From an uncultured Methanosarcinales archaeon (GTDB taxonomy: Archaea; Nanobdellota; Nanobdellia; Woesearchaeales; GW2011-AR15), in the NCBI GenBank assembly GCA_964441565.1, contig CAYTWW010000010.1, positions 3,637 through 67,636 of the forward strand: 64,000 nucleotides of DNA, read 5' to 3'. Shown here one piece after another: positions 989 through 36,505 of the stretch. The notes below the pieces were generated by a model. That model saw nothing but the letters and a program-made list of their open reading frames with translations. It searched no databases and was not told where the DNA came from. How positions within the stretch are numbered: position 1 is the stretch's first letter; the number at the start of each line of letters is the position of its first letter. The translations under genes were made by a program, and so were the position numbers.

Positions 989-2389
989 TCATGACTTCCT
1001 GCGTAGCATCAGGAGCTTCATCTCATTCTCAGATGAGGCGTAGCGCACTTCACTGACAATATCATATCTCTCTGATATCCTCTGAAGTATGGCAGGCCCT
1101 TGTCTCGAATAAAGCTGCCGTGACACGATGATGAACGCTTCCTGGCTCTCAAGCTCATCTGCATTCTCCACTGTACCAAGAGGGAACACTCGCTTCTCCC
1201 TTGCGCAGGCATATATGTCCTGTGAGGCGAAGCAGTCAGGCATTAGATAATAGGAAAGTGGGAGGACCTCTGAAGATTCGAGAACACCGATGTCTCTCTC
1301 TCCTCTGTCCTGCAGCCTTGCGGAGACCTCATCCCATCTGTCCTTCTGCGTCCCTACATGCTGTGCGACCAGCGCTGCGATGGACAGGACGAGGAGGAGG
1401 AAGAGCATACGTGGCCTCCTGGCCAGGGGGATCGCTGCTCCAAGTATGAATGGGACTACTGCGAAGAAGGAGTATTTGCCTATGAAAAGAGGGTAGATCA
1501 AGAGCGCGAACAGGAATGGCAATATGATGGCGACCGATATCCATGAGAGTAGCATCTTCGAAGGCCTCTGCCTTGACCATGAGTAGATGTAACCAAGCAG
1601 GAGCAGGATCCCGGGTATAGATATGAGGACCCCTGAAGACAGGTCATAGAGCAGGGTGATCGGCATATGAAGGGCTGGACGGGGGATCCACGTGAATGTT
1701 GCCTGGCTGATTATCGATGGAAGCTGCAGCAGCCATGGGAGGAACAGGATGGACGGCACGGATAGCAAAAGTATCATGCGCGACTTCCTTTCGCGGGAGA
1801 TGCTGCTGAAGATGATATCGATCGATTGAGAGAGGAGGATAAGGATAGAGTACATGTGCGAGTAGAGCATCAGTGCTGAGACCAGGGTGTAGAGAGACGC
1901 ACGGGACAAGGTGCACCTTTCCTTGAGCATGATGTATGATAGGTATGATAAGGCTGACAAGAGGAATACAAGCGAATAGGCCCGCAGCTCCTGCGAGTAG
2001 TACACAAGCATAGGATTGAGCGCAGCCAAGGCAGCTGCTGCTAATCCTGCTTTCTGTCCTCCAAGCCTCTTTGCGAGCAGATAGATGACCGGCAAAAGAG
2101 AGGTCCCTATCAGGACAGGGAGGAGCCTCACAGAAGACAGGCCTGTCCCGAAGAGGCTTGTCCAGATCTTGAGCATGATGTTGAACAGAGGAGGAGTATT
2201 GTCGAGAAGACCTATCACTGCCGGCCATGGCTGGATGCTTGTGTGGAGCGTGAAAGCCTCATCAAGCCAGAGGGGTTCAGATGCATGGCCAAAGAGCCTG
2301 ATGGCCAAGGCTATCATGGTTATCAGGAAAAGGTATCTCATGACAAGATCTTTGGAGCATGAGAATAAAACAGAAGGGTTTTGGTTCAA
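989..2389 (-). CDS. GT39/GT83-type (ArnT/PMT_2-like) integral membrane glycosyltransferase
   Basis: Polytopic protein. The N-terminal region HASEPLWLDEAFTLH...GLSSVRLLPVLIGTSLLPVIYLLAKRLGG resembles dolichyl/undecaprenyl-phosphate-sugar transferases of the ArnT/PMT family. The start may be the internal Met at about 2341. Confidence 0.65.
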   Translation of the reverse strand: MNQNPSVLFSCSKDLVMRYLFLITMIALAIRLFGHASEPLWLDEAFTLHTSIQPWPAVIGLLDNTPPLFNIMLKIWTSLFGTGLSSVRLLPVLIGTSLLPVIYLLAKRLGGQKAGLAAAALAALNPMLVYYSQELRAYSLVFLLSALSYLSYIMLKERCTLSRASLYTLVSALMLYSHMYSILILLSQSIDIIFSSISRERKSRMILLLSVPSILFLPWLLQLPSIISQATFTWIPRPALHMPITLLYDLSSGVLISIPGILLLLGYIYSWSRQRPSKMLLSWISVAIILPFLFALLIYPLFIGKYSFFAVVPFILGAAIPLARRPRMLFLLLVLSIAALVAQHVGTQKDRWDEVSARLQDRGERDIGVLESSEVLPLSYYLMPDCFASQDIYACAREKRVFPLGTVENADELESQEAFIIVSRQLYSRQGPAILQRISERYDIVSEVRYASSENEMKLLMLRRKS

Positions 2390-2392
2390 AAG

Positions 2393-2917
2393 CTAGCTCA
2401 CGATTATCTGACGTGCCTGCGCATCATACTCGATGAGAATCTTCTGCTCTGCGACAATAGGCTGGAGGAACCTTATCTGGTTCTTTGATCCGCAGGATAA
2501 CGCAGATGCATCAGAATCATCGAAGCTGTTCTCGATCAGGTGGCACTGCTCCCTGTCGATGAGCATGCCTGTCAGGTCTGCCTCTGTAAGGGGAGAGAAT
2601 GCTGCTCCGGCAGGGATGATTATCTCGCTGCAGAGGATATCTGCCTCTTTCCTGCCATTCGCAGATTGGGTCCAGCATGCCATGATCATCTTAAGCACTG
2701 TGTCCTCGATATCATGGTCGATGCGCATGGCTTCCATCGTGAAAGCTTCCTGATCGCAGAAATCATCGCGTGTCTCCTGCCAGACCGCAGTCCTAAGCTT
2801 GTAGAGAGTATCGCAATACGTCTTCCTCCCTTGGTCAGTCCTGCCTGCATACAGAGTGAACACAAGGAGGATCGAGGCGATTGTCACAATGATGACGAAG
2901 ATGAGGACGACTGACAT
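2393..2917 (-). CDS. hypothetical N-terminally membrane-anchored protein (start moved to internal Met, 175 aa)
   Basis: The track ORF starts at 3067 and overlaps the upstream gene. The internal Met (MSVVLIFVIIVTIASILLVF) follows a GGTGGGGTG SD-like stretch and removes the overlap. It is the last gene of the co-oriented secretome operon. Confidence 0.5.
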   Translation of the reverse strand: MSVVLIFVIIVTIASILLVFTLYAGRTDQGRKTYCDTLYKLRTAVWQETRDDFCDQEAFTMEAMRIDHDIEDTVLKMIMACWTQSANGRKEADILCSEIIIPAGAAFSPLTEADLTGMLIDREQCHLIENSFDDSDASALSCGSKNQIRFLQPIVAEQKILIEYDAQARQIIVS

Positions 2918-2928
2918 CTCTCCCTGCT

Positions 2929-4356
2929 TCACATCCCGCACCCCACCTTGACTGTCTCTGTCACCATGTCTGTGCAGTCTGGGCAATTGGAGTATGTTAT
3001 AATCTCCTCCTGTCCGTATGGTTTTGTGCTGCATGACCCGCCTGGGTTCGCGCCTCCTCCTCCGCACAGGATGTTGCCATAGGGATCTGCTGAATAGCTG
3101 CAGGTCGAAGGTGAATAATGGTCAGGATAGCAGCACTGCGGGATCGGATAGTCCAGGGCTGTCTTCATCGAGATATGCCCTTTGATCCTGAACAAAAGGT
3201 TCGTGAATCCCTCTTCGTATACAGGTGACTGGTATTTATTATCGACACATTCCAGGGTGTAGATATATTCGATCTGCACATTGGCGGCCTTGCCCAGGGA
3301 TGTCTGGTATGGATCTTCGCCATGGCAGGTGCTTGTGCATGCTCCACATGCTGCCTCGCTCCCCTTGAATTTGCAGTCCGCTGCTCCGGCCGCGATCTGC
3401 TCGCCATCCATGGAATAGCAGTAGGGATCGTCTCTCGGCATGTATCTGCAGGTCTGGTCCTTGCAGCCATACTCGCAGTTCTCAGGGTGTCCGATATAGG
3501 GCTTGTCATCACAGGATTGGTAGTCGACCACTACCGAGCAGTCCACATTGCCGTCGAATCTGGACTCAAGGTTTGCGACAGCTGTGTCAAGGAGTCCTTT
3601 TATCGTCCAGGTGGACTCAGGATTGAATGGCTTTGGGCAGCCTCCGCATTGCGGGCAATCGCATTCCAGCGTAGTTATGACCCATGGTCCGTTGATGTGC
3701 TTGCATGTATTGTCCGGGATGCTGTACTCATCGATCCACTGCTTGATGATCCTCCACATGTACCAGTACCTGACTGGCCAGACCTCAGACACATATGAAT
3801 GCATGAATTCCCTCTCATTTTCCCCTCCTTCTATCACCAATGGGTCCCTGAGATTGGCATTGTCTGACATATAGGAACGCCCCTGCACCAGGTATCGTTC
3901 ATCGAAATCTCCTCCCACCACGCCTGATTCATCGACCAGGATCTCGATCTCTGCGAAGGCTCCTGAATCCCTGACCTTGGCACCTCCGAAGTCATAGTTC
4001 CTTGTCCTGAGGAGATAGCTGTTCGAGAAAGCCCGAGTCGAAGTCATCAGGTAGTTGTATGTGTCCAGGAAACCTGGATCATCAGGGCAGGATGCCACAG
4101 TCCAGTACTCCTTGCCTGCGCCGAATTTGGCGTTCTCGAAATCCGCGCGTGTCGATCCGGTCCTAAGGCTGTGATATGCATATTCTTTCATGACCTCGCT
4201 GTAGCTGGCCAGGCTTTCCTGCTCCTGCTTGTCCTGCTCCTGGGTACCAAGTATGCCTATGTCCTGCTGCAGGGTCACAGTTACCAAGAGTCCGAATAGG
4301 ATAAGCATGAATATCCCCGTCATCAGAGCTGAAGCTTTTTTCATGTCCCCTCGCAA
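2929..4356 (-). CDS. secreted/anchored Cys-rich protein (475 aa), pilin-like N-terminus
   Basis: N-terminus MRGDMKKA|SALMTGIFMLILFGLLVTV (KKA then a hydrophobic stretch). The C-terminal half is very Cys-rich (CDCPQCGGCPKP...CGACTSTCHGEDPY). It overlaps the upstream gene by 16 nt. Confidence 0.6.
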   Translation of the reverse strand: MRGDMKKASALMTGIFMLILFGLLVTVTLQQDIGILGTQEQDKQEQESLASYSEVMKEYAYHSLRTGSTRADFENAKFGAGKEYWTVASCPDDPGFLDTYNYLMTSTRAFSNSYLLRTRNYDFGGAKVRDSGAFAEIEILVDESGVVGGDFDERYLVQGRSYMSDNANLRDPLVIEGGENEREFMHSYVSEVWPVRYWYMWRIIKQWIDEYSIPDNTCKHINGPWVITTLECDCPQCGGCPKPFNPESTWTIKGLLDTAVANLESRFDGNVDCSVVVDYQSCDDKPYIGHPENCEYGCKDQTCRYMPRDDPYCYSMDGEQIAAGAADCKFKGSEAACGACTSTCHGEDPYQTSLGKAANVQIEYIYTLECVDNKYQSPVYEEGFTNLLFRIKGHISMKTALDYPIPQCCYPDHYSPSTCSYSADPYGNILCGGGGANPGGSCSTKPYGQEEIITYSNCPDCTDMVTETVKVGCGM

Positions 4357-6179
4357 TGAGCCCTGAACTTTTCTGCTATGTACTCGCTAATAAATCTATG
4401 CCCCTGCGTATTGAGATGTATGCCATCGTTGGCATAGAGTGACATGCAGCTGCCGTGGTCCTGGATGGCCTTTCGCACATCAATCAGCAGATATCCTTCC
4501 TCCTCTGCGAAATCCCTCTCCATCTGCGCCATCTGCTCATGGGATGGGAAGCTTCCTGAGAATCCGGATGAACTTGTGCAGACAGGGATTGTCGTCAGGA
4601 TGACTGGCTTTATGCCTTCAGCCACCATGTCCTGCGCAAGCCTCCGGTAGCCTTTGTATTCCCCCTCTGACTCGATCTGAGATGTCGCCTGCGCTATCGA
4701 GCCTACATTCATCCCGAACCACATCATGACATAGTCTGGCATCTCAGGCAGGATCGTATCGTAGAATGCCTTGCTTGGCGCAGGGATATCTGTCTCTCCG
4801 CCGCAGCTCGCGAGAGGAGCGCTGTCGATACGCTGGCATGTGTAGCCATAGGGGTCGACATGCCAGATATGGGCAGGCATGAGGGAATCAAGCTCCTCCT
4901 TGAGCGGAGTCCCGGAAAGCTCATGTCCTCTTGTTATGCTGTCTCCGAATAGCGCGATCTCTATGGTGGATCCCTGGCACACGTCCTCTGTGTCGTCCTC
5001 AGTGTCATCCTCAGTGTCGGGAGGGACGTATGCTCCTCCCTCGACGTCTGCGAATCCTCCTGGGCTGTACATGAAATCCGCCCTGCAAAGATATGCCTGC
5101 GTGCAGGGGCAGGGGAAGACCACAGTGAATGTATTCACGTCCGCGTCAGGCAGCTTGTAATCAGGACCGACCAACTGCGATGATGTTATGAGCAAGGTCC
5201 GCTCCGGGGTCAGCGGACCTCCAAGGGTCGCTGATATCTCAGCTATGGCGCTGGCTGCATCGACCAGGCTCACCATCCTCCCTCCTGTCTCCTCTGCCAG
5301 GCGTCTCGCAAGGTCCGGCTGGTACGCGCCTGCCCAGGTTACACCGTCATGGCAGACGCACCATGTCGTCGGTGTGACTGGTTCCATGAAGAACACCTGG
5401 ACACCAGCATCCCTGCATCTCTGGATTGCCTCTTCGACATATCGCTGTGTGATCTCATAATTGATCGAAGGGCACCTGGAATTCGAAACGCACCCTTCGC
5501 CGCCGCAGTTGGCTTCGTCGCTTGATATGAACAAGGCCTTGACCATATCATCGGTCCACGGCTGCACCTCTATCCCTGCATCCGACTTGACAACACGTCC
5601 GCTCTCGCAAAGGTTGCCCATCGCACCTGCCCAGTTCTCGATGTCTGTGGTGCCGCCTTTCGCAGGGTCGCAGCGCATGACATCGGGATATGATGAGGAT
5701 AGCTCGGATGTCAGGATCATCTCAGACTCTTCGCTGATCGCATCCATGATCCTCCTTATGGTTATCATGTCATCAGTCATGGTGCCGCTCGAATCGACGA
5801 TGAATGGGAGGAGAGGGATCTTCTCGAGCTTCACCTTGTATAGAGCCAGACCCCAGTTGTCTCTTCCATATATGATATCCAGCTTGTCCCTTATCTCTGA
5901 GCCTGCGTCGAACGTGATGCCGCTGCCATAGTCGACTGCATCTTGTCCATAGCATATGTATGACCCGAGCACTTCTTCGAAAGGGATGCCCTGGCTTGTC
6001 TGGTATCCGAGCGTGGTCGAGCTTATCCCCATATATTCCCTTATGCCCTCGCCCTGTGATTCTTCAGCCCTGGTCACCGCATCCACCAGTGTTCCCTGCT
6101 TGGAGATGAGCAGGAATGCGACAAGCCCTATCAGGAGGAATGTTATTGAGATCCAGATGTCGGTCTGAGCCTTTCTCAT
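4341..6179 (-). CDS. membrane-anchored vWA-like + SGNH/GDSL hydrolase fusion protein (612 aa)
   Basis: N-terminal TM/pilin-like segment MRKA|QTDIWISITFLLIGLVAFLL. Central vWA-like region. DTEDDTEDDTED acidic repeat. The C-terminus carries GDSITRG (the GDSL block) and DGIHLN (the DGxH block) of the SGNH esterase/lipase fold. Confidence 0.65.
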   Translation of the reverse strand: MRKAQTDIWISITFLLIGLVAFLLISKQGTLVDAVTRAEESQGEGIREYMGISSTTLGYQTSQGIPFEEVLGSYICYGQDAVDYGSGITFDAGSEIRDKLDIIYGRDNWGLALYKVKLEKIPLLPFIVDSSGTMTDDMITIRRIMDAISEESEMILTSELSSSYPDVMRCDPAKGGTTDIENWAGAMGNLCESGRVVKSDAGIEVQPWTDDMVKALFISSDEANCGGEGCVSNSRCPSINYEITQRYVEEAIQRCRDAGVQVFFMEPVTPTTWCVCHDGVTWAGAYQPDLARRLAEETGGRMVSLVDAASAIAEISATLGGPLTPERTLLITSSQLVGPDYKLPDADVNTFTVVFPCPCTQAYLCRADFMYSPGGFADVEGGAYVPPDTEDDTEDDTEDVCQGSTIEIALFGDSITRGHELSGTPLKEELDSLMPAHIWHVDPYGYTCQRIDSAPLASCGGETDIPAPSKAFYDTILPEMPDYVMMWFGMNVGSIAQATSQIESEGEYKGYRRLAQDMVAEGIKPVILTTIPVCTSSSGFSGSFPSHEQMAQMERDFAEEEGYLLIDVRKAIQDHGSCMSLYANDGIHLNTQGHRFISEYIAEKFRAHCEGT

Positions 6180-6868
6180 CTTATCACGACACCGCCTTCA
6201 TATGATATCAGCAGGAGATGATCGCCTTCTTCAAGCGTGAATGGCGAGACTGGACAGCTGAAGGCAGCCTTGAAGCAATCCTGCGATATGCAGAAAAGGT
6301 CACCATCATAGCTTATCGTGCCTGTCAGCAACATATGCTCCTCAAATGATTTCCTGTACCTGCAAGCCCTCTTTATCGTCCCATAGAAATCTATCTCATC
6401 TGAGAAATATGCTGTGAGCTCTGCTGTCACAGGACGGATGTCTGAAGGGCCATTGTAGAGCGAGAGGTGGACAGGGATGCTTATCTGCCTGTCTGATCTC
6501 ACTGGCGCGTGGCCGAATTCCCAGGATGATCCGACCACTTCATGGACATGCACCTTGTACAGGAATCTTTCGCTTGACGCGCACCTGACATCTCCTGGCA
6601 GTCCTGCGTACGCAGACAAGAGCGCAGGTGAGAGCAGGCCCTGGATATTTATCAGGTCAGAGCCGGGTATGTCGGAGCCTGCTGCCAGGCATTTCCCAAA
6701 TAACGTCTCAGATACGCTGTATATCTCTGCATAAGGTGAGAAATGCAGTTCCTGCTCTGCGACTCCTTTCTTATTGGACAGGATCGAAATGAGGAGGATG
6801 AATGTGAATATGACAAGGAATACGGCATAGAGCATGTTGGTTGTGAGGGCCATGGATCTCTTATGCAT
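6176..6868 (-). CDS. hypothetical N-terminally anchored protein (230 aa)
   Basis: MHKRSMALTTNMLYAVFLVIFTFILLISIL TM anchor. It has 4-nt ATGA-type overlaps with both neighbours. Confidence 0.5.
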   Translation of the reverse strand: MHKRSMALTTNMLYAVFLVIFTFILLISILSNKKGVAEQELHFSPYAEIYSVSETLFGKCLAAGSDIPGSDLINIQGLLSPALLSAYAGLPGDVRCASSERFLYKVHVHEVVGSSWEFGHAPVRSDRQISIPVHLSLYNGPSDIRPVTAELTAYFSDEIDFYGTIKRACRYRKSFEEHMLLTGTISYDGDLFCISQDCFKAAFSCPVSPFTLEEGDHLLLISYEGGVVIR

Positions 6869-7745
6869 CTTCTTTCCTCAACCTGGTCATCAGGAAGACC
6901 AGCATCAGCATGCCGACTGTCCCAAGAAGAAGTATCCTGTAGTCCACTCCTCCTGACCTGACAGGCTTATCTTCCTCCTCTTCGATGATAAGGACCTCAG
7001 CGATCTCTTCCCCGCATCTTCCTCCGCTGCAGGTGCAGTCAGTGCACGTGTCTGCCTCATTCCAGCAGTCTGATGGGCAAACCTCTCCCTTCTCGCAGTA
7101 GCCATCGCCGCAGCCTCTGAGGCAGATGCCTATGCAGCATCTGGTACCTGTGTCATCTGCATATTCCCATCTTCCGCTGCATCTCTCACCTGCCTCGCAT
7201 GGAGAACCGCCTACATCTGTGCACTTTGTGAGAGGCAGCCTGCTATCGGCATAGAGGCATGTGCCTTTGCATCCAGCGCAGTCTGCGTCCCTTTCGCTGC
7301 AATCAGGATCGCAGATGCCGTCCTCCACGAAGTCACAGTACGAGTCCTTCGAGCCTGAAGGGCAATCTGTGCAGCTGGCTGAATTCTCCCTGAGAGCGCA
7401 GCTGTCGCATGGCTCGCATATTCCATCGAAGTCGCAGAAAGAGATATTTTCCTCATGGCTGAAAGAAGGGCTGGAGATCATGATGGATGCGACACCTGAA
7501 GGCAGTGCAAGCTTCGTGCCTGTGCCAGCGTACATCATGCCGCGCGCTATCTCTGTCCCTGTCCTGTCCCTGAGAGAATACATGGAATAATCACCGTCTG
7601 GTACTCCTCCATAGAATGCGATCGAATGGAGCGCAGAATCGCTTGTGACAGCAGTTCGTATGTTCCCGTCGTACTTAAGATGGAGGATCGGCTGCGCGGC
7701 AGCAGCAGATATAAGCATGATGAACAGGAGGTATACAGGCTTCAT
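6861..7745 (-). CDS. secreted Cys/Asp-rich repeat protein with C-terminal TM anchor (294 aa)
   Basis: Sec-type signal peptide MKPVYLLFIMLISAAAAQP. Repeated DGICDPDC / DGICEPCDSC Cys-Asp modules. C-terminal TM plus basic tail (LLLGTVGMLMLVFLMTRLRKEDA). Confidence 0.6.
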   Translation of the reverse strand: MKPVYLLFIMLISAAAAQPILHLKYDGNIRTAVTSDSALHSIAFYGGVPDGDYSMYSLRDRTGTEIARGMMYAGTGTKLALPSGVASIMISSPSFSHEENISFCDFDGICEPCDSCALRENSASCTDCPSGSKDSYCDFVEDGICDPDCSERDADCAGCKGTCLYADSRLPLTKCTDVGGSPCEAGERCSGRWEYADDTGTRCCIGICLRGCGDGYCEKGEVCPSDCWNEADTCTDCTCSGGRCGEEIAEVLIIEEEEDKPVRSGGVDYRILLLGTVGMLMLVFLMTRLRKEDA

Positions 7746-10504
7746 CTTATCAGCTCCAACTGCCAGCCATAATGCTGGAGGATCCCATCAAGATAGGTGC
7801 TCTTGTCTATGACAAGATTGCTTCCGTACTCATATTGATCTGTCTCCCCATAGTTCGTGGGCGCAGGGTCGCTTATGATGATCTCATCTTCGCTGTATCC
7901 ATGGATCACGAAATAATGCCCTCCTGAATATGTCCTCCCTGCTGTGTAATCGTTCCACTCCTGCATTATCGAGAGCTGGACAAGCACATTGCCTGAATCT
8001 ATGAGGCGCTTCAGGTTGTTCCAGTTGTATTCCTTGTTGACTGAGCGGGCATCGACCGTGGTCATGTCTTCTGTCGCCGATTCCAGTTCCCACATCGCTG
8101 CTCCGCTTGGTGGATTCCCGACAAAATCCCATATCCTGCCTATGTCTACACTCCTATCCGTGAGGCCTTCGAGTGCCATCTTCAGGGAAGTAGGACCGCA
8201 TGCAGAGCCAGGCATATACGACATTGTGTACTGGCAATAGTAAGGGATCTCGACAAGCACACTGTCCGGAGGACAGCTGGCCCTGCAGCAATTGTCCCCG
8301 CAGACCTGGTCTGGATAATAATCCTGCAGTTTCTGCTTGCCTGCCCCGCAATAGGAGCAAGTCTCACCTGAAGGCTGATGCCGTTCCTCATCTGGGCATA
8401 GCCTCTTCGCCCCCAGATATTTCTGCTGCCAGGACGGCGAGTCGAGCTGTTGGATGTTTATCGGATCCCCGGCATGTATGAACTGGCCACCGCCTATGTA
8501 CATCCCTACATGATTAGGCTTCCTTGTCGTCCATCCTGTATCGAAGAATATCAGATCACCTGGCTTTAGGACATTCATGTTCGGCATGATCGAGCCGACC
8601 TGGTCATGGTCTTTTGTAGGATCATGGTCTACGACCCTCCCATCATCCCTGGCCTGGACTCCGGCTGTCCTGTATGTGAGCTTGAAAGAGTCGTCACCAA
8701 TCTCTTCCGCATAGTGTGCGTATATCCACTTTGTGAAGGCGCCGCAGTCTGTCCCGCATTTGCCTGTCGCCTGCGTCATCGATGCATAGGTTGCGTGAGT
8801 GCAGCCCATGTCTGGATATTCTACGACGACTCCGGGGCAGCTGCCATACGCCGGAGGATCAGATGCCTCATCCCATTCTGCCGAGCCCAGGCAATAAGGA
8901 GAACCCAGCGCCGACTTGGCTATCTCGACAAGCCTGCTCCCGCAAGCTCCTCCATCCTCCAGGTCCTCCGGGCATTCGACTGTGCCTCCAGCCATGGCTG
9001 CGATAAGAGCTGATGTCTTGGCGTTGTCTGACTGGAAGAGCGAAAGGAAATCCTCTGCGATCGGCTTGAAAGCGTCTCCGTAGGAGTCGCCTCCGTTTAT
9101 CCTCTTACCTACTGTCCAGAAATCCCTCGCAGCGCAGAGATCGATAAGCCCTTTGTATTCATAGAATGCTGCGAATATCTTCCCCGCGAGAGCTGGCTCT
9201 AGGGCCTTTGAAGGAGGACAATCCTGGTTGAGGCATTGCCATTGCCCGTTGCAATCGCATTCATCCGGAGATGAAGAAAGACATTCTGCACCGCAGAACC
9301 TCTCATAAGCGTCCTTGTGCGTGATCTGGATGTATCCTCTTCCTTTATAGTCGCATCCTCCCTGGTAGGGGCTGCCTCTGCATGATCCGCCGACTGTGTA
9401 GGTGCATCCTGGGCCCATGCAGTAATCTCCGTATTCCTCGACTGGGAGGAAAGTGCCACCAACTTCCTTTGTGAGGGTTGCCATCACCGCTGCCAAGATC
9501 TCTGGCGTGACAGGGATGCCTTCCTCCCTGAAGCCTGCTCCGATAGATGCGAGCGCATCTGCAAGATTCTGATTCTTCTCTTCTGAATATGTGAAAAGCT
9601 CAGGGAATATGGAAGGTTCGACAGCTGATACAGGGATGCATTCCTCTTCCTCTGCAGAGCATGAGGTGCCGTCCCATCTCTTCCCAAGCGGGCAGCAGTG
9701 CCTGCTCTGGCAGATGAGATCAGATGCGCATTCTGCAGTGCAAATGCATTCTGATGCCTGGGGCAGCTCTGGCGATACTATGCACGATCCATCGCAGCAG
9801 CGCTCTGAGCCAGGGCATGCGCAATCGTCTCCTGTGCCACAGTTCTCAAGGAGGTGAGGTTCGCAGACACCATTCCCTTCATGGCAGTCGATATCATCTA
9901 TGCAGTCGGGGTCGCATATCGCATTCTCCTCGCCGCAATCAGGATCGCATATGCCATCCACATCCAGCCTGTTGTTTTTCAGATCATGGTTGGAGTCAGC
10001 GCAATATGGATTGCAGACTCCTTCGGCTCCCCCGCAGTCTGGATCGCATATGTGCTCGATCACACAGCCAGGATCGCAGGTACCATCGCCTGCCTTGCAA
10101 TCAGCCCGCTGGGCGATCATCACGCTGTTGCTGCTTGAGAATATCCTGATCTTACCTGAATCCTCCATATAGGAATATAGGATGTTGGCATTGGGGTGGA
10201 AGAAGGTCTTTGTGACTGAGATATCCCTCGTCGTCAGATTTAGTGTGAGAGTGCTGCCATTCATCTCCAATGTATATGATTCTGCGAAAGGTACTGTGAT
10301 CGTGTGGACAGCGTCGCTTGGGTATGTGAGGGATTTCTCGACAGCCAGCTTGACCTTGTCAAGAAGATACTCAGCCATCTCAAGCTCGGACTCCCTGCTC
10401 TGCCAGTTATGTATCCCTGAGAGACTTCCGATGACTATGCCTGATACTGCGAGGAGACCTATCAAGAGAACTATGTTAAGAACTGAAGCACCCCTCTTTT
10501 GCAT
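7742..10504 (-). CDS. 920-aa pilin-signal multidomain hydrolase: Cys/Asp repeats + GH19-like lysozyme/chitinase + NlpC/P60 + C39-like peptidase
   Basis: N-terminus MQKRG|ASVLNIVLLIGLLAVSG matches the archaeal class III (prepilin) signal motif. DGICDPDC repeats. ILAAVMATLTKEVGG...GRGYIQITHKDAYERF resembles the GH19 catalytic core. CGTDCGAFTKWIY...HVGMYIGGGQFIHAGDP is the NlpC/P60 Cys-His core. C-terminal YCQY...CGPTSLKMAL is a Peptidase_C39-like motif. Confidence 0.7.
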   Translation of the reverse strand: MQKRGASVLNIVLLIGLLAVSGIVIGSLSGIHNWQSRESELEMAEYLLDKVKLAVEKSLTYPSDAVHTITVPFAESYTLEMNGSTLTLNLTTRDISVTKTFFHPNANILYSYMEDSGKIRIFSSSNSVMIAQRADCKAGDGTCDPGCVIEHICDPDCGGAEGVCNPYCADSNHDLKNNRLDVDGICDPDCGEENAICDPDCIDDIDCHEGNGVCEPHLLENCGTGDDCACPGSERCCDGSCIVSPELPQASECICTAECASDLICQSRHCCPLGKRWDGTSCSAEEEECIPVSAVEPSIFPELFTYSEEKNQNLADALASIGAGFREEGIPVTPEILAAVMATLTKEVGGTFLPVEEYGDYCMGPGCTYTVGGSCRGSPYQGGCDYKGRGYIQITHKDAYERFCGAECLSSSPDECDCNGQWQCLNQDCPPSKALEPALAGKIFAAFYEYKGLIDLCAARDFWTVGKRINGGDSYGDAFKPIAEDFLSLFQSDNAKTSALIAAMAGGTVECPEDLEDGGACGSRLVEIAKSALGSPYCLGSAEWDEASDPPAYGSCPGVVVEYPDMGCTHATYASMTQATGKCGTDCGAFTKWIYAHYAEEIGDDSFKLTYRTAGVQARDDGRVVDHDPTKDHDQVGSIMPNMNVLKPGDLIFFDTGWTTRKPNHVGMYIGGGQFIHAGDPINIQQLDSPSWQQKYLGAKRLCPDEERHQPSGETCSYCGAGKQKLQDYYPDQVCGDNCCRASCPPDSVLVEIPYYCQYTMSYMPGSACGPTSLKMALEGLTDRSVDIGRIWDFVGNPPSGAAMWELESATEDMTTVDARSVNKEYNWNNLKRLIDSGNVLVQLSIMQEWNDYTAGRTYSGGHYFVIHGYSEDEIIISDPAPTNYGETDQYEYGSNLVIDKSTYLDGILQHYGWQLELIR

Positions 10505-10527
10505 CGACTAGAGACTTTGGTTTTGAG

Positions 10528-10538
10528 GTATATAAACC
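10528..10538 (-). promoter_or_regulatory. TATA box (TTTATATAC on the minus strand) about 30 nt upstream of the 920-aa gene start
   Basis: The minus strand reads aaaggTTTATATAcctcaaaacc...ATG. It is the only promoter-like element upstream of the six overlapping genes. Confidence 0.45.
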
Positions 10539-10767
10539 TTTTGGGCGTGGAGACTAAGGAATTGTTGAATGAGATAATTGGGGTGAATAAAGTCTTGCCA
10601 ATGCATTGGAGAGGTCACTCATACAAAACGCAATTCCTTTAAGCAATCTGCCTCCGGTCTGGCGCACATCTCGACTCCTGAGAATCAAAAACGTCCAATA
10701 TAAACAAGGCAGGTGCAGACAATAGCTTCGCTTGCTGACTCTGCCTTGTCCCGCTGCTTGCTCTGTT

Positions 10768-11838
10768 TCACACCTTCTCGCACACTATCACATTACCTTC
10801 GAACCTGAACTTCACTGGGAGGAACTGCTCGATAACGTAGATGTTTGAGCGCACGTGGTCTGTTATCTGTGAGATGCTGACACGGCAATCAGGGAACATG
10901 GCCATGACTGGGAGGATCTGATCTGCCATGTGGCGGTCGACGCATGCGCCGCTGTCTATCTCTTCGAGGAGCTGCTTTGCTGCTTCCTGGCCTACTGCTT
11001 CTGCACGCTTGCCTCTCTCCCCAAGAGAGTCAGCGCCAAGTATCGTCATCTCTTCATCATCTGCGAAGCCTGCCCAGAGGGTGATGCCTGAGCCTGTCGA
11101 CTGCGTGTCGCAGTGCTCGATCCTGATCTTCGCCGGGACGTCAAGTTGGCGAAGAATGAATCTCGCTGCCCTTGCCTGGCGTTCTGCGACCTCTGCTTTC
11201 ATCAGGTCCTTTGATGCGTGCGAGACACCGGATATCTCGACAAGCCTTCCTCTCTTTGTGAAGTCCATCTTCTTCCCTATCTTATCTGTGTCTTCAAAGA
11301 GCTTGTCGAAGGTCTCATAGTCCTTGTGATGGAACTTCGGGCGAAGGCGGAGCTTGACCTTCCCTCCGCCTGCTGGATAATAGCCACGTGCTTCGAGGAA
11401 GAGATCAGATTCGCAGTACCTTTTTGTGAAAGGGAGGAAGACATTCGTGAAATAGTCCATCTGGGGACTCCACTTAGTGTCTGTGCCGCCTCTTCCCTTG
11501 ATAACAACAAGATCACTGCCAAACATGCTCGGGAGGAATATGCTCTGGAACAACAGAGTGAGAGAGCCTGCTGTCTCAACGTCGATATTGAGGTTCTTCA
11601 CCTTCAAGGCCTTTGGGTAGAAATCAAGTGATGTGCTGCCAAGCTCAAGGCCGACAACATCTGCATCGCAGAGCTGGGCGCATGCCTTTCCTCCATAGAG
11701 ATGCTGGTGCTTGAGCCCTGGCTCCTTCCTCCCCTTCCTGATGTCAGTGGCAGTGAATGGCTTGCCTGTGAGGGTCGAGAGCGCGAGCGCTGTGCGGATG
11801 ATCTGTCCTCCTCCCTCCGAGCCATCGACATGGATCAT
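10768..11838 (-). CDS. rtcA: RNA 3'-terminal phosphate cyclase
   Basis: MIHVDGSEGGGQIIRTALALSTLTGKPF is the RtcA N-terminal signature. Length is 356 aa. Confidence 0.85.
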   Translation of the reverse strand: MIHVDGSEGGGQIIRTALALSTLTGKPFTATDIRKGRKEPGLKHQHLYGGKACAQLCDADVVGLELGSTSLDFYPKALKVKNLNIDVETAGSLTLLFQSIFLPSMFGSDLVVIKGRGGTDTKWSPQMDYFTNVFLPFTKRYCESDLFLEARGYYPAGGGKVKLRLRPKFHHKDYETFDKLFEDTDKIGKKMDFTKRGRLVEISGVSHASKDLMKAEVAERQARAARFILRQLDVPAKIRIEHCDTQSTGSGITLWAGFADDEEMTILGADSLGERGKRAEAVGQEAAKQLLEEIDSGACVDRHMADQILPVMAMFPDCRVSISQITDHVRSNIYVIEQFLPVKFRFEGNVIVCEKV

Positions 11839-13517: not shown

Positions 13518-15407
13518 TCAATAACTCTTAGCCCAGTATGCCCAGTACTTCGCAGCTTTGCCGCACTTCACGCACTTGCCTTCTGCCTTGGGTGCGTCGA
13601 ATGGGATGCATAGGGCTTTCACTCCTACAGTCTCTGCTTTTATCTCTTCTTCGCATGCGCCATCTCCGCAATGCTGCGCGAAGATGAGCTTCTTCTCTGC
13701 TGCTGCGAACTGTTCCCAGGTGTCTGCCTTGACAATGGATTCATCCCTCATCTTCTTTGCTTTCTCGAGGAGGTTCTGCTGGATCGCTTCCAGAAGCGCT
13801 GGGATCTCCTTGCTAAGGGAAGCGAATGGTACAGGAACTTTCTCACCAGTGTCTCTTCTCACAATCATTACCTGGCCTTTCTCCATGTCTTTTGGACCGA
13901 TCTCGATCCTCAGAGGCACACCTTTGAGTTCCCACTCATTGAATTTCCAGCCTGATGAATAATCAAGGCGGTCATCGAGCTTGATGGATATTCCATGGAG
14001 CGAGTCCCTTATCTCCCTTGCTTTGGCGAGGACTGCATCTCTTGTGTTCTCGAAGATTATCGGGACGATGACTGCCTGGATAGGTGCTGCTCTTGGCGGC
14101 ATGATCAATCCTTTATCATCGCCGTGCATGAGGATCATGGCGCCTATTGACCTTGTGCTATAGCCCCATGAGTTCTGGTACGGGTGCTTCTTCTGGCCAT
14201 CCTTGTCCAGGAACGAGATGCCGAAGCTCTTGGCGAAGTTCTGGCCGAGCATGTGGGATGTGCCTCCCTGGAGAGCCTTGCCTTGCGGCAGCATGATCTC
14301 GACAGTGGTCGTGTAATCTGCGCCTGCGAACTTCTCCTTCATCGTCTTTGTGCCTTTGATGACAGGCACAGCGAGAAGCTCTTCATAGCATTCTGCGTAG
14401 TAGCCGAGCATCTCACGGACTTCTGCATCTGCCTCCTCCTTTGTGGAGAAGACTGTGTGACCTTCCTGCCAGAGGAATTCCCTGGTCCTGAGGAATGGGA
14501 CTGCGTACTTGAATTCCCAGCGCACTGCATTGCACCACTGGTTCAGCCTGAGAGGAAGATCGTTATGAGAGCGGATCCATTTGCTGTAGGAATCATACAT
14601 GATGGTCTCAGATGTCGGGCGGACAGCGAGCTTCTCTGTGAGCTTCGTGTCGCCTCCATGAGTCACCCATGCGACTTCTGGGGAGAATCCTGCGACATGC
14701 TCCTTCTCCTTTGTGAGGAGGGATTCTGGGATGAAAATCGGGAAGTATGCGTTCTTGACTCCAGATGCCCTGAATCTTGCGTCGAGGAAATCATGTATCT
14801 TCTCCCAGATAGCGTATGAGTATGGGCGAAAGACTATGCAGCCTGATATCCTTGTGTAGTCTGCGAGCTCTGCCTTCTGGATGACCTGGGTGTACCACTC
14901 GCTCGTGTTCTCTTCCTTTCCTACACTGAGGCCGAGAGTGTTCTTCTTCTGCTCCTTCTTCTCCTCGAAATCAACTATCTCTGGGACTGCGAGACCGACA
15001 AGCTCTTCTGCATCCATCTGGATAGTCTTTGTGAGGGATGCTGAGAAGCATATGCTCTTCTGCTTCAACAGCTGCCTGTCATAGACAAGCTTTCCGCCTG
15101 TGAAGCCGAAAGGAGGGACTGCTCCTGGCTCTGCGCCTGTTACTTTTCGGACTTCATCAAGGGATGCGAGCGAGAGCTTCATGTCGAGGAGCTTCTCAAG
15201 CTTCTGCCTGTTCATGCTCCTGTCGCCAGGACCGACCGCTAGGATGAACTGTCCGTCATCTGACTTGAAGAGCATGGATTTCGCGATCTGCTTCTCGTCG
15301 CAACCGCATTCCTTTGCCTGCTCCTTGCATGTCCTGACTTCTGCATGCTCCATGAGCTTGTATGTCGCCTTGTTATCATCGAGGAAATGTATCATGTCCA
15401 TCTTCAT
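13518..15407 (-). CDS. proS: prolyl-tRNA synthetase, archaeal/eukaryal class II type, with N-terminal YbaK/ProX-like deacylase domain
   Basis: The first ~150 aa resemble YbaK/ProX (ILAVGPGDRSMNRQKLEKLL...GAVPPFGF). The remainder is archaeal-type ProRS. It overlaps proC by 4 nt. Confidence 0.85.
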   Translation of the reverse strand: MKMDMIHFLDDNKATYKLMEHAEVRTCKEQAKECGCDEKQIAKSMLFKSDDGQFILAVGPGDRSMNRQKLEKLLDMKLSLASLDEVRKVTGAEPGAVPPFGFTGGKLVYDRQLLKQKSICFSASLTKTIQMDAEELVGLAVPEIVDFEEKKEQKKNTLGLSVGKEENTSEWYTQVIQKAELADYTRISGCIVFRPYSYAIWEKIHDFLDARFRASGVKNAYFPIFIPESLLTKEKEHVAGFSPEVAWVTHGGDTKLTEKLAVRPTSETIMYDSYSKWIRSHNDLPLRLNQWCNAVRWEFKYAVPFLRTREFLWQEGHTVFSTKEEADAEVREMLGYYAECYEELLAVPVIKGTKTMKEKFAGADYTTTVEIMLPQGKALQGGTSHMLGQNFAKSFGISFLDKDGQKKHPYQNSWGYSTRSIGAMILMHGDDKGLIMPPRAAPIQAVIVPIIFENTRDAVLAKAREIRDSLHGISIKLDDRLDYSSGWKFNEWELKGVPLRIEIGPKDMEKGQVMIVRRDTGEKVPVPFASLSKEIPALLEAIQQNLLEKAKKMRDESIVKADTWEQFAAAEKKLIFAQHCGDGACEEEIKAETVGVKALCIPFDAPKAEGKCVKCGKAAKYWAYWAKSY

Positions 15408-17139: not shown

Positions 17140-17988
17140 GTGATCGACGAAGAGACTGTCAGGAAGAACCTTGGAAAGACACTGGTCTCGACAGACACAG
17201 GGCTGGGAACGAAGACTGAGACTGAAAGCGAGGATATCTATACCCTCGATGATAAAGTGTTCATCATCTCCACTGACAGGATGGATGGCACATCGGTTCC
17301 CTTCAAAGGCCAGGTGGAATCAAGGCTTGGCGCACTCTGGTTCAGGCTGACGCAGGACATCATCAGGAACTCTTACATAGAGAGTCCGGATCACAATGTG
17401 CTTGTCCTTGGAAGATCAGAGCCTCTTCCATTCAAGGTGAGAGTCGAAGGATATCTCGCAGGAGAGCTTTGGGACAGGTATGGGTCAGGAGACCGAAAGA
17501 TAAGCGGCTACAAGTTCAACCAAGGACTCCTCAAGGACCAGAAGTTGGGGATGCCGATAACTATACTCTCTGCAGAAGGGAAGGACATCACTCCGGAGGA
17601 GGCAATTCAGGCAGGACTGCTTAGTGAGGAAGAATTTTCGCTGATCGATGATGCCTCCATCGCGATATTCAAGCTTGGCAATAAGCTTGTGAGAGAGCAT
17701 GGATTCATCATGCACAAGGCTGAATATCTTTTTGGAAGGAGCAAGAATGGGATCGTCCTTGCTTCGATCGTGCATACTCCCTCTTCGGCAGTCTTCTGGG
17801 ACAAGAAGAAGTTCGATGAGATCGGAGCAGGTACAGATGTGTTCGTCCCGGGGACAGATGAGCAGTCACGCATCATCAATTCAGTCAGATACGCTGAGCT
17901 GTTCGAGAAGCTCACAAACCAGGTGTTCCATCCAGAGACTGTAGATGCGGAACGATTGAAGGAGTCCCTGATCGACTATCATTTCTGA
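17140..17988 (+). CDS. purC: phosphoribosylaminoimidazole-succinocarboxamide (SAICAR) synthase
   Basis: PFKVRVEGYLAGELWDRYG and IVLASIVHTPSSAVFWDK match conserved PurC blocks. Confidence 0.6.
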   Translation: MIDEETVRKNLGKTLVSTDTGLGTKTETESEDIYTLDDKVFIISTDRMDGTSVPFKGQVESRLGALWFRLTQDIIRNSYIESPDHNVLVLGRSEPLPFKVRVEGYLAGELWDRYGSGDRKISGYKFNQGLLKDQKLGMPITILSAEGKDITPEEAIQAGLLSEEEFSLIDDASIAIFKLGNKLVREHGFIMHKAEYLFGRSKNGIVLASIVHTPSSAVFWDKKKFDEIGAGTDVFVPGTDEQSRIINSVRYAELFEKLTNQVFHPETVDAERLKESLIDYHF

Positions 17989-35681: not shown

Positions 35682-35787
35682 TGGCTCGGCCGGGATTCGA
35701 ACCCGGGTCTCAGCCTCGAAAGGGCTGAATGATTGATTGTCCACAACACCTCTTTCGAGGAGCTGCTCCGGACTACACCACCGAGCC
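35682..35787 (-). tRNA. tRNA-Glu (anticodon UUC) with a ~30-nt non-canonical intron in the D-loop region
   Basis: Acceptor GGCUCGG/CCGAGCC plus discriminator A. T-arm CCGGG-UUCGAAU-CCCGG. Anticodon arm CAGCC-CUUUCGA-GGCUG. 4-nt variable loop. An extra AGCAGCUCCUCGAAAGAGGUGUUGUGGA(CAAU) is inserted after GUAGUCCGG relative to archaeal tRNA-Glu. No encoded CCA. An oligo-T follows. Confidence 0.6.
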
Positions 35788-35835: not shown

Positions 35836-36395
35836 TTAGCGTCTGAATGCCTGGGTCAGGAGATCGGATCTCGTCACGACACCCATTGATGATCCCTTGC
35901 CGCGGACAATGATGATCGGATACTGCCTAAGAAGAGCTGCGATAGTCTCAGTATCAGTCTCCGGAGGAATGATAGGAGGAGCTCCTTCCATGACTTCTGA
36001 TACTACCGCATCTTTATCAAGACCCGACATAAGAGATTCCAGGAGGATGCTCTCACTGACATAGCCGAGCACCTTCCCACCTTCAGCAACAGGAAGCTGT
36101 GAGATCCCATGCTTGCGCATCACTTCGATAGCATGTTTTATATCGCTACCTGGACTTATGGTTATCATGTTCTGGTTCATGATATCCCTAGCTTTTATGC
36201 CAGATTTCTGCTCAAGCTGCCTCAATGTAGAGAAAAGTTTCATGGCATTGGTATAGGAAGGATCAAGCTTCCCAGATTCGACCTTAGCGATGAGAGACTG
36301 GGAGACACCGCTCCTCGCCGCCAGGTCAGATTGCGTAAGTCCAAGCTTCTTTCGAAGCAGCTTTATCATCAAGAGGTCATCCATCAAACCAACCA
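35836..36395 (-). CDS. HTH (XRE) + CBS-pair domain regulator (start moved to internal Met MVGLMDD)
   Basis: [29 protein letters not shown] followed by two CBS motifs. The sequence AAAACATATATATT lies 10-20 nt upstream of the chosen ATG. This suggests a TATA box and a leaderless mRNA. Confidence 0.7.
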
Positions 36396-36505
36396 TAGAG
36401 ACTGAATATATATGTTTTACCCTAATTCGGATAAGAATATTTCTATCAACAAGCTTTTTATTGGATCCGCAAGATGGACATCTAAAAACAAAGGAGGCGG
36501 TCAAT
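36396..36505. promoter_or_regulatory. divergent promoter region between the HTH-CBS regulator and metK (TATA on one side, SD AAAGGAGG + TTG start on the other)
   Basis: Seen directly: atatatat adjacent to the regulator ATG. aaaggaggcggtcaaTTG precedes the MetK reading frame. Confidence 0.45.

Follow-up and report, generated by a model that had tools for sequence, protein, structure and literature searches.

The window, that is, the whole stretch of 64,000 nucleotides that was analyzed, contains an open reading frame on the minus strand at 7742..10504 (gene 1; the coordinates include the stop codon), which starts with ATG and encodes a modular protein of 920 amino acids, the length given in the original prediction. 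That prediction described a secreted archaeal protein in which three hydrolase catalytic domains are fused behind a prepilin-like N-terminus. Our analysis supports this description, and every motif named in it was found in the translation. The same protein, identical and with unchanged neighbors, was present on contigs of three separate JGI metagenome assemblies, so that gene 1 is not an assembly artifact. The archaeal origin of its DNA was confirmed by the gene content of the window, which includes exosome subunits, SBDS, the proteasome alpha subunit and TFIIE, and by an isoleucyl-tRNA synthetase (IleRS) whose named relatives are nearly all Woesearchaeota or Nanoarchaeota.

Gene 1 is the leading member of a cassette of six genes on the minus strand. 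A TATA-box-like element (TTTATATA, 10529..10536, minus strand), read from the sequence, lies 25 nt upstream of the gene 1 ATG; its position suggests that the cassette transcript may be leaderless or have a very short leader, if the element functions as the archaeal promoter consensus would imply. The start of gene 2 (6861..7745) overlaps the gene 1 stop by 4 nt, and its 294-aa product has a Sec-type signal, a cysteine content of 8.8% and a C-terminal transmembrane anchor. Class III-like N-termini (arrows mark the predicted cleavage sites) were found in the products of gene 3 (6176..6868; 230 aa; MHKRS↓MALTT...), gene 4 (4341..6179; 612 aa; MRKA↓QTDIW...) and gene 5 (2929..4344; 471 aa; MKKA↓SALM...). 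The gene 4 protein ends in an SGNH/GDSL hydrolase domain (aa 410-595; Pfam, 6.6e-16), a part missing from its orthologue on contig L004, while the Cys-rich gene 5 protein is the best-conserved member of the cassette (44% identity with the L004 orthologue). Gene 6 (2393..2917), with a GGGAG Shine-Dalgarno-like motif upstream of its ATG, encodes 174 aa with an N-terminal hydrophobic helix, and its orthologues have the leaders KKA↓ or KRG↓. Orthologues of all six genes occur in the same order on five other DPANN contigs (L004, L005, L019, L020 and L021), gene 2 keeping its position in each of them. The cassette is adjoined by a gene for a PMT_2-type membrane glycosyltransferase (989..2389, minus strand; Pfam, 8.3e-12), which lies outside the conserved cassette and does not hold this position in L004; going by adjacency only, it may glycosylate the cassette proteins.

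The first 133 residues of the gene 1 protein (10106..10504, minus strand) form a putative pilin-like module that contains no cysteine and consists of a helix (residues 3-60) followed by a beta-sheet (66-131). Its N-terminus, MQKRG↓ASVLNIVLLIGLLAVSGIVIG, combines a short basic leader, G/A at position -1 and about 20 hydrophobic residues, which is the archaeal class III pattern, and a [KR]G↓[ADE]T..N motif is kept in 11 orthologues; the prepilin-like signal of the original prediction is thus both of a fitting type and conserved. The same succession of a basic leader, a G, A or S residue and about 20 hydrophobic residues characterizes the products of genes 3, 4 and 5 and the orthologues of gene 6. 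Homologue searches indicated that the module is specific to these archaeal proteins. It is followed by an acidic Cys-rich stalk (aa 136-290; 9635..10099, minus strand) with 27 cysteines in 155 residues and five C-[DN]-P-x-C motifs, a motif type that recurs in gene 2; no Pfam family was found for the stalk.

Neither a pilus ATPase nor a platform protein nor a class III signal peptidase was detected among the scanned open reading frames of the window, and no type IV filament machinery was found within about 10 kb of the five related cassettes. These results count against the pilus-based reading given below. In an alternative, the same enzymes would act without any pilus, the N-terminal helix being an uncleaved signal-anchor or a bindosome-like tether to the cell's own membrane and the other cassette products being unrelated membrane-anchored surface proteins. 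We consider this unlikely and prefer to regard the N-terminus as a type-IV-pilin-like carrier.

The C-terminal part of the protein comprises two cysteine peptidase domains. The first, of the NlpC/P60 type (MEROPS C40; aa 521-705; 8390..8944, minus strand), was recovered with the expected Pfam model PF00877 (aa 581-701, E=2e-15, 57.1 bits against a cutoff of 23, profile positions 10-105 of 105). Its PDB matches were cell-wall hydrolases (down to 1.4e-9), with murein endopeptidases including LytE, MepS and CwlO. The motifs TDCGAF (aa 585), NHVGMY (aa 664) and FIHAGD (aa 675) supply the candidate triad C587, H665 and H677, and both histidines align with HVGIY...HAG of LytE and Tn916-type hydrolases; the insert between the cysteine and the first histidine is unusually long (78 residues). 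A short Cys-rich linker (aa 706-751; 8252..8389, minus strand; 6 Cys in 46 residues) leads to the second domain, a papain-fold cysteine peptidase (aa 752-920; 7745..8251, minus strand) that matched Peptidase_C39_2 (PF13529; aa 752-881, E=1e-11, 46.1 bits against a cutoff of 24, profile positions 2-143 of 143). Its motifs are YCQYT (aa 756), ACGPTS (aa 768) and GGHYFVIHGY (aa 861), and the alignment with protein P0002 (QxxxCGPTS...GHVLV...NDP) showed that Q758, C769 (ACGPTS), H863 (GGHYFV) and D879 (ISDP) are shared. By comparison with the Peptidase_C39_2 family, these four are the candidate papain-type catalytic residues. The bacteriocin-processing C39 family (PF03412) was rejected, as it scored 16.7 bits, below its cutoff of 22, and the cassette contains no ABC transporter. 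The original prediction had also made the C39-like domain a cell-wall hydrolase; the peptidase itself was borne out, but a role at the wall is not a property of the family, and such a role is suggested by its fusion partners and, by analogy, by phage LysA precedents (PMC3314691).

The central domain (aa 293-512; 8969..9628, minus strand) is a divergent GH19-type glycoside hydrolase of the lysozyme/chitinase fold with two Cys-rich loop insertions. Taken literally, the proposed match to PF00182 failed: this Pfam model detected neither the whole protein nor aa 286-520 alone, even at E<=10. The assignment to GH19 is nonetheless supported by three lines of evidence. (i) A family profile built from 12 sequences (A1) matched GH19-type endolysins and a class II chitinase in the PDB (9ms7, 1.5e-6; 8p8e, 1.1e-4; 4ok7; Endolysin A; 1dxj). 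In a library of 1.84 billion proteins it gave 728 matches, and nine of ten distant matches sampled from 4e-14 down to the 0.001 cut-off carried PF00182. (ii) The AF2 model (pLDDT 79.9, with Cys-rich loops of low confidence) has a GH19-like, alpha-rich, lysozyme-like fold, and its top nine Foldseek matches in the PDB were all GH19 endolysins or chitinases (probability 0.80-1.00, TM only 0.39-0.53), chitinases 3wh1, 1wvu and 4mck among the matches. (iii) The PHROGs endolysin family phrog_181 matched aa 322-474 (6.9e-11).

In GH19 enzymes, the catalytic acid is a glutamate at the end of an xE[TV]GG helix and the base lies about 10 residues downstream, accompanied by Q-x-[ST] and INGG motifs. The corresponding motifs of the gene 1 protein are KEVGG (aa 346), PVEEYG (aa 354), GRGYIQITH (aa 388) and RINGG (aa 468), which provide E347 and E357, as well as Q393/T395 and N470, as candidate catalytic residues, so that such candidates are present in all three enzyme domains. 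E347 pairs with HETGG/TETGH, and E357 with PIEEYG/PIHEYG/PVAENG, in the alignment to PF00182-positive proteins, and the catalytic glutamate motifs are invariant across the 12-sequence family alignment. The predicted activity is cleavage of beta-1,4 GlcNAc/MurNAc bonds, as by a chitinase or a muramidase.

About 64 clusters (50% identity) scored below about 1e-17 in the profile search, before a drop to generic GH19 matches; most of the members that bear names are DPANN, and some lie on contigs titled Methanothrix. The gene 1 domain and these relatives define a clade of GH19 type that escapes detection by Pfam, and domain-based surveys therefore undercount archaeal peptidoglycan hydrolases of this kind. 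All inspected archaeal proteins that carry the domain and have an intact N-terminus possess a Sec or a class III signal. One relative (P0004) has the domain joined to M23 and SLT, and the nearest PF00182-recognizable relatives combine GH19 with LysM (P0065) or with CHAP and SH3 (P0103). In another of these relatives, L018, the N-terminus, judged by eye, resembles a peptidoglycan-binding repeat.

Since the NlpC/P60 region also matched tail-lysin families of PHROGs, and the GC content of the cassette (0.52-0.55) slightly exceeds the window mean (about 0.49-0.50), we considered whether gene 1 might stem from a virus or provirus, as a gene for lysis or for a tail lysin, or have been inserted recently from bacteria, with no cellular archaeal function. 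This is barely credible. The other five cassette proteins showed no PHROGs endolysin or structural matches, the sole other match being that of the gene 4 SGNH domain to tail-fiber families; the flanks are housekeeping genes (RtcA, ProRS, P5C reductase and MutS); the cassette is kept amid cellular genes on the five other DPANN contigs; and, as stated above, the N-terminal module is confined to this set of archaeal proteins. Membership among phage endolysins or tail lysins was thus rejected, gene 1 lying in neither a viral genome nor a provirus.

The enzymes borne by gene 1 orthologues differ: a GH19-like domain with SGNH, C39_2, papain C1, M64 and a weak reprolysin-like match were encountered. 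As the same carrier is joined to other hydrolases in other lineages, the cassette seems to be a general platform for the display of enzymes that degrade envelopes, one that is not peptidoglycan-specific because some orthologues bear general proteases (C1, M64). The conserved six-gene pilin-like cassette with its swappable gene 1 payloads had been left out of the original prediction.

These data led us to the reading, to which we assign a probability of roughly 60%, that the gene 1 product is a cell-wall hydrolase with several enzymes, working outside the cells of a Woesearchaeota-like DPANN archaeon, a tiny organism of symbiotic type, and borne on an N-terminal module that resembles a type IV pilin. 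It is probably a tool to attack or feed on nearby bacteria. The class III signal (MQKRG↓A and the hydrophobic helix) would direct the protein into the membrane, and the leader would be cleaved, probably by a prepilin-type peptidase whose gene lies in another part of the genome. The module of aa 1-133 would then retain the protein at the surface or enter a short pilus-like fiber, probably at its tip, whose other subunits, to judge from synteny and the shared N-termini, may be the pilin-like products of genes 3-6. The stalk, whose anatomy is seen directly, would be disulfide-rich and would space the three enzymes from the cell. There, the GH19 domain would cleave glycan strands, the NlpC/P60 domain stem peptides (typically at the gamma-D-Glu-diamino acid bond) and the C39-like peptidase a further peptide bond. 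We infer these substrates from the enzyme families and from the fusion of the nearest Pfam-recognizable relatives to LysM, SH3, CHAP or PG_binding-like domains. The most likely target would be the peptidoglycan of neighboring bacteria, since the producer is an archaeon without evidence of murein, and its cleavage would breach the wall of a host or prey or free nutrients. What speaks against this reading is the failure to find pilus machinery, the silent PF00182 model together with structural matches at TM values of only about 0.5, the lack of a recognized wall-binding domain, and the general proteases borne by some orthologues.

Instead, the enzymes might attack chitin or, in an archaeal (methanogen) host, pseudomurein or some other part of the envelope. 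Formally, GH19 is a family of chitinases, and chitinases appear in the list of fold matches above, but endolysins, and not plant-type chitinases, give the best matches in sequence and fold. Contigs that have Methanothrix or Methanosarcinales in their titles and bear euryarchaeal housekeeping genes also encode the GH19-like domain, and orthologues with general proteases suggest payloads matched to different envelopes; NlpC/P60 and C39-like enzymes are, moreover, clan CA peptidases, as are the pseudomurein endoisopeptidases. Pseudomurein, however, contains beta-1,3 glycan bonds and L-amino acids and is not cut by lysozyme-type enzymes. With the murein endopeptidases among the NlpC/P60 matches and the wall-related fusion partners of the closest Pfam-positive relatives also pointing away from such targets, we find a non-murein substrate distinctly improbable and retain bacterial peptidoglycan as the favored one.

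A bolder idea, which we put forward tentatively and hold to be doubtful, is that the six genes specify a complex peculiar to DPANN archaea, a "drill head" at the tip of a pilus or on a pseudopilus. The warheads on its gene 1 subunit (GH19-like/NlpC-P60/C39, SGNH, papain C1 or M64) would be interchangeable and matched to the host envelope, and would open the walls of bacterial (or archaeal) hosts for episymbiosis or predation. If true, archaea would possess in it, on a type IV filament, their own equivalent of polymorphic toxins or of the tail lysins of phages.

The locus is a concrete molecular candidate for the attachment of DPANN archaea to other cells and the extraction of resources from them, and it bears on the question of bacterial hosts: a predicted surface-displayed protein with three intact-looking murein-type enzymes, in a cassette found across DPANN lineages with a payload that varies by lineage. 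Should the enzymes prove active, they would offer candidate antibacterial lysins from a source so far untapped. The suggestion that no such archaeal family had been described holds only in part: extracellular peptidoglycan hydrolases have already been published for Woesearchaeota, Pacearchaeota and Nanoarchaeota (PMC8204110, PMC9723730, PMC12352652), and some relatives are already named "C39 family peptidase" or "C40 family peptidase" in NCBI.

Among known systems, mycobacteriophage Lysin A endolysins, which combine an N4/N5 cysteine peptidase, GH19 and a C-terminal domain (Payne & Hatfull 2012, PMC3314691), likewise have several catalytic activities, since a single chain unites a GH19 glycosidase with a cysteine peptidase of the RipA-like (NlpC/P60) or C39-like type. 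The family profile of the central domain matched Endolysin A structures, and the central domain itself matched phrog_181. In contrast, gene 1 is cellular and archaeal, unites both cysteine peptidases with GH19 and has a GH19 domain of a separate clade with Cys-rich loop insertions, missed by PF00182; its export is predicted to proceed through the class III/pilin-like module and Cys-rich stalk instead of a holin pathway. Modular archaeal peptidoglycan hydrolases, which are prominent in Nanoarchaeota and proposed to kill bacteria, as shown for two haloarchaeal enzymes, also carry bacterial-type peptidoglycan-cleaving domains; they were surveyed by the co-occurrence of a Pfam catalytic and a Pfam cell-wall-binding domain (Strock et al. 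2025, PMC12352652). Pfam recognized the NLPC_P60 catalytic domain but no wall-binding domain in the gene 1 protein, and that survey would therefore have missed it; its signal, too, is class III and not Sec or Tat.

In bacteria, modular type IV pilins, such as PilB of Streptococcus sanguinis, join a small N-terminal pilin "carrier" to a functional "effector", in some cases a predicted peptidase module, and are predicted to be displayed at the tip (Raynaud et al. 2021, PMC8179133). They have the IPR012902 motif and loci with pilus machinery, whereas gene 1 has an archaeal-type signal, three enzymes, a long Cys-rich stalk and no machinery nearby, its entry into a filament being predicted. The substrate-binding proteins of bindosomes, which bear an archaeal class III signal and are not filament subunits (Sivabalasarma & Albers 2026, bioRxiv 10.64898/2026.04.22.720090), resemble gene 1 in placing this signal and a hydrophobic N-terminus on an extracellular functional domain, and their genes, too, often lie apart from those of the assembly machinery; what they display are solute-binding proteins that go with ABC transporters, not wall hydrolases, and their genes are not arranged as this six-gene cassette. 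Woesearchaeota and Pacearchaeota also have large extracellular proteins of the murein lytic transglycosylase (SLT/GH23) type (Castelle et al. 2021, PMC8204110; Vigneron et al. 2022, PMC9723730), which share with gene 1 the lineages and the proposed role, to bind or degrade, outside the cell, the walls of bacterial hosts or prey. Gene 1 differs from them by its GH19-like, C40 and C39_2 domains in place of GH23, its pilin-like carrier and its conserved six-gene cassette.

The 920-aa protein that heads the cassette (gene 1; 7742..10504, minus strand, ATG start) is encoded as originally predicted, and every motif quoted from it was recovered: KEVGG (aa 346), PVEEYG (354), GRGYIQITH (388) and RINGG (468) in the central GH19-like domain (aa ~293-512); TDCGAF (585), NHVGMY (664) and FIHAGD (675) in the NlpC/P60 domain; and YCQYT (756), ACGPTS (768) and GGHYFVIHGY (861) in the C39-like domain. 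Since contigs from three separate JGI metagenome assemblies (the longest contig 172 kb) encode an identical protein amid the same neighbours, an assembly artefact is excluded. The window (GC ~0.45-0.55) also encodes the archaeal exosome subunits Rrp41, Rrp42 and Rrp4, SBDS, proteasome alpha and TFIIE-alpha. Its IleRS shares 73% identity with the best non-self match, from an unclassified archaeon MAG, and 65% with the best match named Candidatus Woesearchaeota, while the remaining named relatives are nearly all Woesearchaeota, Nanoarchaeota or Nanoarchaeia. The archaeal informational genes and the IleRS relatives thus indicate that the source organism is a Woesearchaeota-like DPANN archaeon. 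The same informational genes, and a gene order that does not change among the three assemblies, speak against bacterial contamination or a chimeric contig, and both readings were rejected.

Both cysteine peptidase assignments agreed with Pfam, which placed NLPC_P60 at aa 581-701 (E=2e-15; 57.1 bits vs a cutoff of 23) and Peptidase_C39_2 at aa 752-881 (E=1e-11; 46.1 bits vs a cutoff of 24); true C39 (PF03412) stayed under the Pfam threshold in this protein. Among PDB sequences, the murein hydrolases matched by the NlpC/P60 domain were Tn916-type hydrolases, LytE, MepS/Spr and CwlO. Its HVGMYIGGGQFIHAG lines up with their HxGIY...HAG block, and C587, H665 and H677 make up the expected Cys-His-His set, with an unusually long Cys-to-His spacing of 78 residues. 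The C39-like domain holds a papain-type set (Q758, C769, H863 and D879) that is kept in P0002, the protein with the closest C39_2 domain; a phmmer search of the PDB with the C-terminal 210 aa gave no significant C39-like structure.

The original prediction had proposed PF00182 as the check for a GH19 domain, and this literal test fails because that family does not match the central domain even when the latter is searched in isolation at E<=10; indeed, Pfam found nothing in the isolated region. However, the GH19 reading itself was upheld by profile, fold and PHROGs evidence. The domain is a well-conserved module (~50% identity across archaeal proteins) that is partnered elsewhere with SGNH, M23+SLT, Amidase_3, HEAT repeats, FN3 or C40. 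A profile built from 12 such sequences matched the GH19-type endolysins 9ms7 (1.5e-6), 8p8e and 4ok7 in the PDB, as well as mycobacteriophage Endolysin A and a class II chitinase. Against 1.84 billion representative proteins it gave 728 matches at E<=0.001, comprising a tight core of ~64 clusters below ~1e-17 and then a long tail, in which nine of the ten sampled members contain PF00182, several of them fused to LysM or CHAP+SH3. In HMM alignments to these sampled proteins, E347 (KEVGG) aligns with the HETGG-type Glu and E357 (PVEEYG) with the Glu of PIEEYG/PIHEYG, and the GRGYIQITH and INGG blocks are likewise matched; all these residues are invariant in the 12-sequence alignment. For the AlphaFold2 model of the domain (pLDDT 79.9, with low confidence in two Cys-rich loop insertions), the top nine Foldseek hits in the PDB were all GH19 endolysins or chitinases (probability 0.80-1.00, TM ~0.4-0.5), and the domain directly matched the PHROGs endolysin family phrog_181 (6.9e-11). 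We conclude that it belongs to a divergent GH19 clade, nearer to the endolysin/autolysin type than to plant chitinases. All three hydrolase domains of the gene 1 protein contain candidate catalytic residues.

Among one-genome-per-species contigs, those with the GH19-like domain come from Micrarchaeota, Woesearchaeota and Nanoarchaeota; others bear the title Methanothrix or Methanosarcinales, and there the domain resides in secreted proteins (L009, 9926..11086; L015, ~10001..10909; L016, 9002..12583). The two Methanothrix-titled contigs examined, L009 and L015, bear euryarchaeal aCPSF1 (1005 bits), archaeal methionine adenosyltransferase and EndA; because these flanking genes are euryarchaeal housekeeping genes, the clade may extend beyond DPANN. 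A Sec or class III signal is present in all carriers whose N-terminus is intact, which makes the domain consistently extracellular. In three FN3-containing relatives (P0012, P0014 and P0015), split BLAST segments align the first helix of the domain, FPELFTYS..NQNL, after the rest of it, which suggests a circular permutation or a tandem partial duplication. The archaeal-type S-adenosylmethionine synthetase on L015 is unlike that of the window, a bacterial-type MetK (36290..37693, plus strand; PF00438, PF02772 and PF02773) with an N-terminal extension of ~80 aa.

The prepilin-like signal proposed for gene 1 was borne out by its N-terminus, MQKRG|ASVLNIVLLIGLLAVSGIVIG, which follows the archaeal class III pattern of export and anchoring (basic leader, G at -1, hydrophobic stretch). 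The motif [KR]G|[ADE]T..N is nearly invariant (G5, T7 and N10) in 11 orthologues, a degree of conservation that exceeds the needs of a plain anchor. An AlphaFold2 model of aa 1-135 (pLDDT 85.3) shows a helix of 58 residues and, after it, a beta-sheet, which makes a pilin fold plausible, though not proven. The N-terminal 288 aa matched no Pfam family, apart from a sub-threshold hit to DUF7266 (E=0.12); a profile of the N-terminal alignment retrieved nothing from the protein library at E<=0.001, and scanning metagenome contigs with the gene 1 N-terminus revealed no relatives. An acidic stalk of 155 aa, 27 of which are Cys, separates this module from the enzymes and contains five C-[DN]-P-x-C motifs.

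Gene 1, with the TATA-like TTTATATA 25 nt upstream of its ATG, is followed on the minus strand by genes 2-6 (6861-7745, 6176-6868, 4341-6179, 2929-4344 and 2393-2917), several of whose stops and starts overlap or closely abut. Five other contigs (L004, L005, L019, L020 and L021), whose records, if named, are titled Nanoarchaeota or unclassified 'archaeon', preserve the order of the six genes with an orthologue of each. Genes 1, 3, 4 and 5 (and 6 in the orthologues) encode a basic leader, then G/A/S and ~20 hydrophobic residues, while the gene 2 product has a Sec-type signal, a C-terminal anchor and the same Cys motif as the stalk. Gene 1 orthologues have the N-terminal module and stalk in common, but their C-terminal payloads differ: GH19-like plus SGNH in P0001, NlpC-like plus C39_2 in P0002, papain C1 in P0020, M64 in P0022 and P0023, a weak reprolysin-like match in P0018, or nothing recognisable. 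This is a conserved pilin-like cassette of a DPANN archaeon, with payloads swapped on gene 1. The gene 4 product (4341..6179, minus strand), with its class III-like N-terminus, has an extra C-terminal SGNH/GDSL hydrolase domain (aa 410-595, E=6.6e-16) that is missing from the 385-aa orthologue in L004; from family knowledge, we speculate that this domain and that of P0001 could be peptidoglycan O-acetyl esterases sensitising walls to the glycosidase.

In neither the scanned ORFs of the window nor the genes next to the related cassettes, the 711-756-aa neighbouring proteins included, was a type IV filament ATPase, a platform protein or a class III peptidase detected (no hits to T2SSE, T2SSF or Peptidase_A24), and metagenome contigs scanned with the gene 5 alignment yielded no relatives. 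A plain membrane tether without a fibre is a less likely reading, against which stands the conservation of G5, T7 and N10. Next to the cassette, L019 (15702..17867), L020 (117..2252) and L005 (4825..7095, minus strand) encode an almost Cys-free conserved protein of 711-756 aa with no significant Pfam match and no homologue in the window; Cohesin- and Dockerin-domain proteins also adjoin the cassette in L019. Directly downstream in the window, at a position not conserved in L004, is a PMT_2-type membrane glycosyltransferase (989..2389, minus strand) that could glycosylate the pilin-like proteins.

All functional statements on gene 1 and its cassette we infer from these features. The protein would be inserted into the membrane, probably with its leader cleaved, and displayed either at the cell surface or on a short type-IV-like fibre, at whose tip it would sit and which its cassette partners would help to build. 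There, the GH19 domain would cut glycan strands, the NlpC/P60 domain the gamma-D-Glu-diamino-acid bond and the C39-like domain another peptide bond, all in the peptidoglycan of neighbouring bacteria. A non-murein target (pseudomurein, another host envelope or chitin) seems rather improbable; the chitinases among the Foldseek hits are compatible with it, and the murein hydrolases aligned with the NlpC/P60 domain point to peptidoglycan. Viral origin, to which the endolysin family match might speak, is very improbable: the other cassette proteins match no PHROGs endolysin or structural families, only the gene 4 SGNH domain matching tail-fibre families, and housekeeping genes flank the cassette. 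On these two grounds a provirus is unlikely, and the prophage reading was rejected.

Elsewhere in the window, two adjoining genes (58736..62274, plus strand) encode GH113 (beta-mannanase-like) and DUF2334 (polysaccharide deacetylase-like) proteins with large N-terminal extensions, which makes them further candidates for extracellular enzymes that act on polysaccharides. A multi-PAS histidine kinase of 776 aa (17979..20309, minus strand) has a response regulator beside it (seen in L001), signalling equipment that stands out in a reduced DPANN genome. The prolyl-tRNA synthetase (13518..15407, minus strand) belongs to the archaeal/eukaryotic type (ProRS-C_1); a YbaK-like tRNA_edit domain fused at its N-terminus gives it an architecture uncommon for an archaeon. 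A tRNA at 35682..35750 (minus strand) scored 30.2 bits in Rfam (threshold 29) and was absent from the ARAGORN output. An 836-aa K/E-rich protein, apparently coiled-coil by eye and lacking a Pfam match, is encoded at 48008..50518 (plus strand), and its gene accounts for the strong nucleotide skew at 48-50 kb (0.22 for GC, 0.35 for AT).

Overall, the original observation is confirmed and its interpretation, three hydrolase domains behind a prepilin-like N-terminus, is supported with the above qualifications. New here are the pilin-like display, in an archaeon, of an endolysin-type toolkit of three enzymes, a GH19 clade invisible to Pfam, and the conservation of a six-gene cassette whose payloads can be swapped, which together offer a directly testable handle on DPANN-bacteria interactions; the full-text library searched contained no description of the cassette or of an archaeal pilin-borne wall hydrolase. 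Extracellular murein hydrolases have been reported in Woesearchaeota/Pacearchaeota and taken to act on bacteria that serve as hosts or prey (PMC8204110, PMC9723730). Archaeal peptidoglycan hydrolases were surveyed in 2025, with Nanoarchaeota standing out and with two haloarchaeal enzymes shown to kill bacteria; that survey would miss the gene 1 protein because it required a Pfam wall-binding domain (PMC12352652). [quoted passage not shown] In bacteria, pilins composed of 'carrier' and 'effector' modules, some with predicted peptidase modules, are established (PMC8179133); the gene 1 protein differs from them in its archaeal host and in an effector load that amounts to a three-enzyme, endolysin-type toolkit.
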